Source: a virus (Duplodnaviria; Heunggongvirae; Uroviricota; Caudoviricetes). From it: a stretch of 5,865 nt of DNA. The notes under the pieces were generated by a model that worked only from the letters and a program-made list of their open reading frames with translations, did not search any database and was not told the DNA's origin. The position numbers and the translations under genes are program-made. This document shows positions 838 to 1,553 of this stretch, in pieces (position 1 is the stretch's first letter; each line of letters begins with the position of its first letter). The stretch lies in the IMG/VR virus record IMGVR_UViG_2529293151_000012. One strand, 5' to 3'.

Positions 838-1553
838 GCCAGTTTCTGGTTGCCGCTAACCGTATCGCGTTTATTGACCCGGCAAACGGGAATGAAACGC
901 CGATGTTTGTGGCGCAGGGCAACCAGATATTCATGAACGACGTGTTCCTGAAACGCCTGACGGCCCCCACCATTACCAGCGGTGGAAATCCACCGGCATT
1001 TTCCCTGACACCGGACGGAAAGCTGACTGCTAAAAATGCGGATATCAGTGGTAGTGTGAATGCGAACTCCGGGACGCTCAACAACGTCACGATTAATGAG
1101 AACTGTCAGATTAAGGGGAAACTGTCAGCCAACCAGATTGAAGGCGATATTGTCAAAACGGTCAGCAAGTCTTTCCCCCGCACGAGCACTTATGCCAGCG
1201 GCACCATCACGGTAAGAATCAGTGATGATCAGAAGTTTGACCGGCAGGTCATGATACCGCCAGTGTTATTCCGCGGTGGTAAGCATGAGAATTTCAACAG
1301 TAATAACCAACAGTCATACTGGTATTCAACCTGCCGGTTAAGAGTGACCCGCAATGGTCAGGAGATTTTTAATCAGTCCACGACGGATGCTCAGGGCGGT
1401 AGTTACAGTGCAGTTATTGATATGCCGAGTGGCAGGGGAAGCGTCACTCTGGAGTTTAAGATTTTCCAGAAAGGCAATCAGGGGGCAGGCAATATCACCG
1501 ACTGTACGGTGATTGTGACCAAAAAAGCCGCTTCCGGCATCAGTATTCGTTGA
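810..1553 (+). CDS. J: C-terminal portion of host-specificity protein J (receptor-binding region), in a different frame from the upstream J segment; probably the continuation of one disrupted J gene and not an independent gene
   Basis: Frame 3 translation from about nt 792 reads [96 protein letters not shown], which I recognise as the lambda J segment that directly follows ...KDGKHYV. There is no Shine-Dalgarno sequence before the ATG at 810. Stop TGA at 1551-1553 is followed by a terminator hairpin. Confidence 0.85.

Follow-up and report, generated by a model that had tools for sequence, protein, structure and literature searches.

Parts of two common alleles are joined in the J receptor-binding domain encoded on a draft contig of a defective Escherichia coli lambdoid prophage

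We found that the 3′ end of gene J in the analyzed stretch of DNA (5,865 bp, referred to below as the window) encodes the C-terminal Ig-like receptor-binding domain (RBD) of the lambda-type tail-tip protein J (positions 1080-1553), and that this diverged segment is an in-register chimera of two common alleles and not a new module. It is probable that it represents the RBD of a defective lambdoid prophage, in which an A8-type front has been combined with an mEp332-type back, and that the 158-nt patch carrying the latter is either a recent conversion or a consensus artefact. Only this hybrid sequence is new; modular exchange within J is itself known and has been quantified (PMC6646904).

Gene content of the contig

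The window covers all of contig AQBD01000115.1, which belongs to draft assembly GCA_000357845.2 (E. coli P0304816.6). It contains, in this order, the 3′ third of J, an intact lom gene, stf (1,132 codons) and the start of tfa (Table 1). The RBD is placed at the C-terminal end of J, behind the PF09327 tail-tip fibre, and is followed by lom, stf and tfa. The contig begins within J and ends within tfa, both of which are repeated among lambdoid prophages, and therefore features located close to shared sequence may reflect the collapse of repeats. A search of the window for Rfam families found none.

Table 1. Features of the window and of the RBD encoded by its J gene (RBD numbering starts at the codon at position 1080)
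Feature	Coordinates	Strand	Basis
J, upstream part (FNIII/Ig_J domains and start of the tail-tip fibre); frame 1, open at the contig start, post-deletion end at the out-of-frame TGA 835-837	1..837	+	ORF list; Pfam PF24421/PF24489
1-nt deletion in J (missing G)	789..790	+	lambda CATTATGTCGCGG versus window CATTAT-TCGCGG
J, downstream frame, 247 aa as called (ENF54760.1)	810..1553	+	PF09327 beta-prism fibre, then PF12421
RBD residues 1-106, A8/YYZ-2008/phi330/PhiR30_1 allele	1080..1398	+	nt and aa identity, diagnostic sites
Left junction, only CG shared by the parental alleles	1397..1398	+	in register, A-Q-G / G-S-Y-S
Sequence over the junction (slash, point of the join)			hybrid GGGCG/GTAGTT
RBD residues 107-157, stop codon and 3 nt, mEp332/mEp460/cdtI/2851 allele (158-nt patch)	1399..1556	+	
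J-lom intergenic terminator, hairpin GGCGTCA-GAAA-TGACGCC and T-run	1573..1596	+	sequence inspection
lom, Ail/Lom outer-membrane beta-barrel protein, 199 aa, intact	1621..2220	+	PF06316, E=2.6e-120
stf, side tail fibre, 1132 aa from ATG (GTG at 2279)	2285..5683	+	PF08400, PF21446, PF07484
tfa, tail fibre assembly protein, start only, truncated by the contig end	5683..5865	+	PF28596; synteny with AR436 and other loci
Strand beta1	24-30 (RBD)		model
Loop L1	31-40 (RBD)		model
Strand beta2	41-48 (RBD)		model
Strand beta3	55-72 (RBD)		model
Loop L2	73-77 (RBD)		model
Strand beta4	78-91 (RBD)		model
Strand beta5	94-101 (RBD)		model
Loop L3	102-106 (RBD)		model
Strand beta6	107-115 (RBD)		model
Strand beta7	121-131 (RBD)		model
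Loop L4	132-141 (RBD)		model; sequence of L4 in A8, ...SSSGANNWTPTTSISD
Strand beta8	142-148 (RBD)		model

The hairpin between J and lom was recognized by eye, and the automated terminator scan did not pick it up. It is kept in all of the J alleles aligned, and the right end of the 158-nt patch is located just 5′ of it. A second hairpin with a T-run, conserved across the compared J alleles, forms a terminator 3′ of lom (2247-2274). In the mEp460 record the equivalents of both terminators (one after J, one after lom) are annotated as rho-independent.

The exact Lom protein occurs in 446 blocks of the collection, and no hybrid J join was found among the Lom loci that were fetched. The exact-protein look-up returned the Stf protein from this contig alone. 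This protein contains (i) an Ala/Ser/Thr-rich low-complexity repeat of ~350 residues and (ii) His-rich H-x-H repeats near the C-terminus. Along stf the closest relative switches between loci several times, which could reflect either a natural mosaic or an effect of repeat assembly. Within the repeat region there are also long ORFs in other frames or on the opposite strand (2682-3692, +; 2782-3531, -; 2877-3569, -), and a 249-aa antisense ORF within stf was even listed by the gene caller. These extra ORFs are most likely by-products of the GC-rich, Ala-codon composition of the repeat.

Identity of the domain and its divergence from lambda

The product of the downstream J frame contains PF12421 (Ig_GpJ_C) at residues 125-246, with a score of 100.1 bits (curated threshold, 26.2 bits; E=1.3e-28). 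The best match in a sequence search of the PDB was A8 gpJ 713 (9WCA/9WCB, E=7e-78), with lambda J (8XCJ/8IYK) at E~1e-25.

Upstream of the domain J is nearly identical to that of lambda, as the original prediction had held: when the frame is repaired by restoring one G, 345 of 360 aa (96%) are shared, through ...NANSGTL. The limits proposed for the diverged segment were exact, as the codon that follows ...SGTL begins at position 1080 and the ORF ends with a TGA stop at 1551-1553. Within these limits the protein is colinear with lambda J and strongly diverged from it, again as predicted, with 66 of the last 157 residues identical (42%) and with indels. A BLASTP comparison with lambda J shows the same picture, with identity up to NANSGTL and a gapped, diverged tail thereafter, and at the nucleotide level the similarity to lambda (93.5-93.9%) ends at about 1106-1117. 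The lambda C-terminus used for the original comparison agrees with J02459, and the protein search against lambda J revealed no high identity to the LamB-binding domain (J residues ~976-1132, including the loops at ~1012 and 1107). Chance cannot account for so large a difference in identity between the body and the tail of J, which matches the published behaviour of the J "specificity region" (lambda residues 960-1132) as a module that evolves separately (PMC6646904).

Two parental alleles and the join between them

The original prediction, which overlooked the chimeric nature of the segment, treated it as a single swapped module, and this part of it has to be replaced. In a megablast search of phages and 5,426 complete E. 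coli genomes no match spans the whole of 1080-1553. Positions 1080-1426 match thousands of records at 96-98%, including YYZ-2008 and phi330 (97.7% nt identity, as for many of the Stx phages), CP-1639, PhiR30_1 and many Stx1a/Stx2a/Stx2c phages, and positions 1400-1620 match a different, equally common set at 95-99%, which comprises mEp332, mEp460, cdtI, phage 2851, ev243 and phiSTEC1575-Stx2k. The two alleles are joined between positions 1398 and 1399: the 99 nt at 1300-1398 are identical to A8-type references (99/99), and all of the 158 nt at 1399-1556 are identical to mEp332 and to the prophage in CP007136.1 (158/158). Allele-diagnostic sites are exclusively of the A type up to ~1397, then of the B type at 74 consecutive sites, and after ~1556 again of the A type in 8 of 9 cases. 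The nearest conserved block to the left junction (1411-1426) lies inside the patch.

At the protein level, residues 1-106 share 100% identity with YYZ-2008 and differ from A8 gpJ (9WCA) at two residues, both located in L1. Neither allele accounts for the entire domain: identity to A8/phi330 amounts to 98-100% over the front ~105 aa and to 44% over the back ~52 aa, and the back matches mEp332/mEp460 at every nucleotide of the patch, with the front at 48-52%. Among 41 representative RBDs, this one alone is incongruent between front and back.

The join itself was seen only here. Exact-protein look-up placed the 247-aa J ORF in one contig, and a 20-mer scan of all fetched loci returned the contig of the window as the single match. 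The hybrid join is absent from the 5,426 complete E. coli genomes, from 50,697 phage records and from 72,556 plasmids, and an exact scan of GTDB representative genomes, IMG/VR and JGI metagenomes with a junction 27-mer gave no match. Two kinds of apparent counterexample were rejected. The "full-coverage" match in E. coli R18 consists of two BLAST pieces joined over tandem RBD copies, and is not a hybrid; the matches that reach query position 369 are plain A8-type alleles, in which BLAST had carried the alignment on through the conserved VIDMP block.

The frameshift in J and the prophage background

The 1-nt deletion splits J into the ORFs 22-837 and 810-1553 and is located ~290 nt upstream of the RBD, so that the single uninterrupted frame of ~1130 codons of a functional J is not present. 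Six complete E. coli genomes match the 201 nt around it (window positions 700-900) at 100% identity. The J gene of E. coli AR436 carries the identical 1-nt deletion, and its gpJ is annotated as "frameshifted" by PGAP. A sequencing error can thus be discounted: the frameshift marks the lineage of a defective prophage, and J in the window is a pseudogene. The original prediction handled the frameshift merely as something to repair, and its suggestion that this element uses the domain for binding does not stand, given a deletion common to six complete genomes.

Compared with AR436, the window shows 0-1 mismatches per 100 nt over the upstream part of J. Throughout positions 1-1398 and 1600-2600 the two sequences differ by a handful of bases, and the sole substantial difference is the 158-nt patch. 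With the patch set aside, the J-lom region is essentially identical to that of AR436 and of five other complete genomes. The background is therefore a prophage like that of AR436, in which J ended in a plain A8-type domain and had already become a pseudogene. The AR436-type J is inactivated by the same deletion, and the domain is thus not part of a working tail tip. Since the frameshift is shared with non-hybrid relatives, it is by parsimony older than the patch.

Predicted fold and position of the join

An AF2 model of the domain, built from a 41-sequence alignment, reached a mean pLDDT of 77.3; a model built from the single sequence (pLDDT 52.7) was discarded. The structure prediction that had been proposed as a check of the domain returned an Ig-like beta-sandwich of the J-tip type, at the overall confidence just given. 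The top four Foldseek matches were 9wcb_F, 9wca, 8xck and 8xcj (TMq 0.70-0.76), the best of them being A8 gpJ713 in complex with OmpC (9wcb_F, TMq 0.76). The pLDDT blocks over residues 81-130, which include the junction, range from 83 to 96, and the core residues around it (VIDMP, G, L-F, V-V-KK) are conserved in all alleles.

In lambda J, four bottom loops (L1-L4) insert into LamB (PMC11101478). Indel hot spots of J homologues are found at lambda positions 1012, 1048/9, 1077/8 and 1107 and show correlated evolution, and a switch to OmpF depends critically on positions 1012 and 1107 (PMC6646904). The four loops of our model appear to coincide with these four hot spots. In the model the join falls at the 1077/1078 hot spot, at the boundary of L3 and beta6, and hence L1-L3 would derive from one allele and L4 with three strands from the other. 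As judged from the monomer model and by analogy with lambda, and not from the coordinates of 9WCB, these loops are the ones that probably face the receptor.

In lambda, the domain forms a trimer at the tip of the central fibre and inserts L1-L4 into the mouth of a trimeric porin, and this binding causes the tail to open. Likewise, the trimeric domain of a working phage would be expected to place its bottom loops in trimeric OmpC and thereby open the tail, just as happens between lambda and LamB. Here, the upstream frameshift would prevent the domain from being made within a functional J. In view of the role of residue 1107 in L4 and of the correlated loop states seen in nature, binding by the hybrid loop set, in which L1-L3 come from A8 and the shorter L4 is foreign, is more likely to be impaired or altered than unchanged.

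Receptors of the parental alleles

The A8-type allele uses OmpC as its receptor, according to both the literature and the PDB. An A8 lambda-gpJ chimera delivered DNA to cells lacking both lamB and ompC only when ompC was supplied in trans (Brödel et al., PMC11338833), and in the same study the A8 and 1A2 chimeras together served 21 of 23 OmpC variants (PMC11338833). Moreover, PDB entry 9WCB is entitled [quoted passage not shown]; A8 gpJ713 is also available without OmpC (9WCA). The Stx2a siphophage phi330 forms no plaques on the Keio ompC mutant, and complementation restores plaque formation (PMC12502783). The dependence of phi330 on ompC could in principle be mediated by its side fibres; against this route, the A8 chimera was tested with a P2 fibre, and its complex with OmpC has been solved.

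A literature search found no receptor assigned to the mEp332/mEp460 allele. One candidate source, a 2026 receptor-prediction preprint, was set aside, as it covers virulent siphoviruses and not lambdoid J. Since the domain joins two alleles, neither of them by itself tells which receptor the hybrid would use. The domain is not the LamB allele, and the evidence for the parental A8-type allele indicates that its receptor would not be LamB. The proposal that a swapped C-terminus confers a different outer-membrane receptor was therefore right in direction, and the search against J homologues with known receptors, which had been suggested as a check, assigned the front two thirds to the OmpC-binding A8/phi330 allele; the receptor of the hybrid itself does not follow from this. 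For the A8-type allele family the receptor question can be answered from existing data, and for the main parental allele it had already been answered in the literature. The finding adds little on this point: exchange of alleles in the J specificity region is already well known, and the main parental allele has both an assigned receptor (OmpC) and a solved complex. The intra-domain join is the only unusual feature, and it is possibly artefactual.

Origin of the join

The window is a whole short draft contig and its join was seen nowhere else in the collections searched, and for this reason the patch is either a very recent conversion or an artefact of a collapsed repeat, which we rate about equally. 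The artefact, to which we would give slightly less than an even chance, requires a strain with two prophages, one AR436-like with a plain A8-type J end, and the other of the mEp332 type, both having the intergenic region and lom in common downstream. Reads of the second prophage would have piled onto the AR436-like J and won the consensus over its last ~158 nt. Reads or super-reads of this second copy, anchored downstream, would generate an in-register switch that needs no shared sequence at its far end. Several observations are consistent with such an event: the window is a complete draft contig ending in repeated prophage genes, its background equals AR436 outside the patch, and the patch matches a common allele at every position and adjoins the conserved intergenic region. 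Furthermore, in nature exactly this Lom is also found behind an mEp-type J end (locus L011, the CP007136.1 prophage), the join is missing from all of the collections scanned (E. coli genomes, phages, plasmids, IMG/VR, GTDB and JGI), the exact J ORF is confined to one contig, and this is the sole incongruent RBD of 41. However, a k-mer graph cannot link sequences that share 2 nt, and the artefact would therefore need junction-spanning reads or an overlap-consensus step; in addition, a very recent true conversion would look identical.

A real join comes close to being an even bet as well. It would represent a recent patch introduced by gene conversion or double crossover into the frameshifted J from a co-resident or superinfecting phage of the mEp332 type, with one end in the J-lom intergenic region and the other in loop L3, and its product would be a neutral scar in a decaying prophage. 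Tandem arrays of the type J-(lom'::RBD)-lom, as present in E. coli R18, could have served as intermediates; in R18 an A8-type J is followed by an mEp-type RBD fused to the start of lom. The in-register junction at homologous codons suggests copying guided by homology and not random end joining, and the right boundary lies within identical sequence. The specificity region is also known to recombine independently of the remainder of J (PMC6646904), and the greater age of the frameshift fits a patch acquired by an already defective gene. A further crossover into an A8-type lom is not needed, because the mEp-type J end of L011 naturally precedes the same Lom. Conversion is weakened by the lack of an identity block at the left junction and by the fact that the join was seen once, with no second occurrence in any of the collections scanned.

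It is very unlikely that the hybrid is a functional RBD, whose specificity was renewed or broadened by the shuffling of loops and which is used after reversion of the frameshift or transfer to an intact J. The fold is predicted with good confidence over the junction, the core residues are conserved, and residue 1107 in L4 of lambda is a key determinant of receptor switching, all of which would be compatible with function. On the other hand, J is frameshifted in the window, the loop states of natural alleles are correlated, and no other representative shows such a mixture of front and back, which suggests that hybrids of this kind are not maintained. The broader reading, that the join is real and demonstrates in-register intra-domain shuffling of the RBD at L3 in lambdoid J, is improbable, although less so than a functional hybrid. 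If it were true, pairing loops L1-L3 from an OmpC binder with the L4 loop from a different allele would be a natural way to reach new receptor specificities in finer steps than whole-module exchange allows; should the hybrid be both real and foldable, nature would have supplied a ready model for engineering gpJ delivery vectors loop by loop. The two readings that we consider best, a conversion of very recent date, guided by homology and with another resident or an incoming lambdoid phage as donor, and a consensus artefact of the draft assembly, would both produce the 158-nt patch described here.

J fusions at other loci

During the inspection of other loci we observed several fusions that involve the J RBD. 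In E. coli R18 (NZ_CP186506.1), an ORF combines the first ~40 Lom residues with the back part of a J RBD (locus L006, 3547-4014). It is flanked by an intact A8-type J on one side and a complete lom gene on the other, which results in two different receptor domains in tandem. Fusions of this kind are seen in proteins P0092, P0119 and P0051, and in P0092 and P0051 the partners are joined at a shared G-S-D-D.

In three other cases (P0057, locus L020, 5001-5564; P0058, locus L021, 175-756; and P0063) unrelated N-termini are fused to the mEp-type allele at one and the same J codon, directly before RGDFVKAVSK, which is the start of strand beta1. The fusion partners are (i) a putative head-protease-like fragment located just after the portal gene, (ii) a putative Rz-like fragment and (iii) a ParB-like fragment. 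The nucleotide junctions in L020 and L021 share just GTCAGA or CAGA with J, and P0063 is known at the protein level. The common fusion codon looks like a hot spot of deletion or recombination at the domain boundary.

Comparison with known systems

The closest relatives of the domain are its two parental types. The OmpC-binding RBD of A8, YYZ-2008, phi330 and PhiR30_1 has the same front and occupies the same position, behind a lambda-like J and ahead of a terminator, lom and stf. It differs in the last 51 residues (beta6-beta8 and L4), in which the window shows ~44% identity and an L4 that is 3 residues shorter; in addition, J of the window is frameshifted. The RBD of mEp332, mEp460, cdtI and 2851 has the same beta6-beta8, L4 and C-terminus, whereas its first 105 residues are 48-52% identical, with different indels in L1 and L2. 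The LamB-binding J of lambda (8XCJ, 8XCK) belongs to the same Pfam family and shares the fold, the colinear strands and the four bottom loops, but is 42% identical over the domain and has indels at all four loop hot spots.

A further parallel is Gifsy-1 of Salmonella, a lambda-like siphophage in which, according to PMC12312913, the tip protein J and Stf both take part in receptor targeting, with the involvement of OmpC. It differs in host genus.

The combination of a lambda-like J body with a foreign C-terminal module is also found in lambda h434 and in the Eligo 1A2 and A8 chimeras. The lambda-434 hybrid, as cited in PMC11101478, is the classical module exchange at this boundary, and natural alleles diverge at the same point as the window, just after ...NANSGTL. 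In the host-range hybrids and engineered chimeras, however, the whole domain is exchanged, whereas the window contains an extra join inside the domain.
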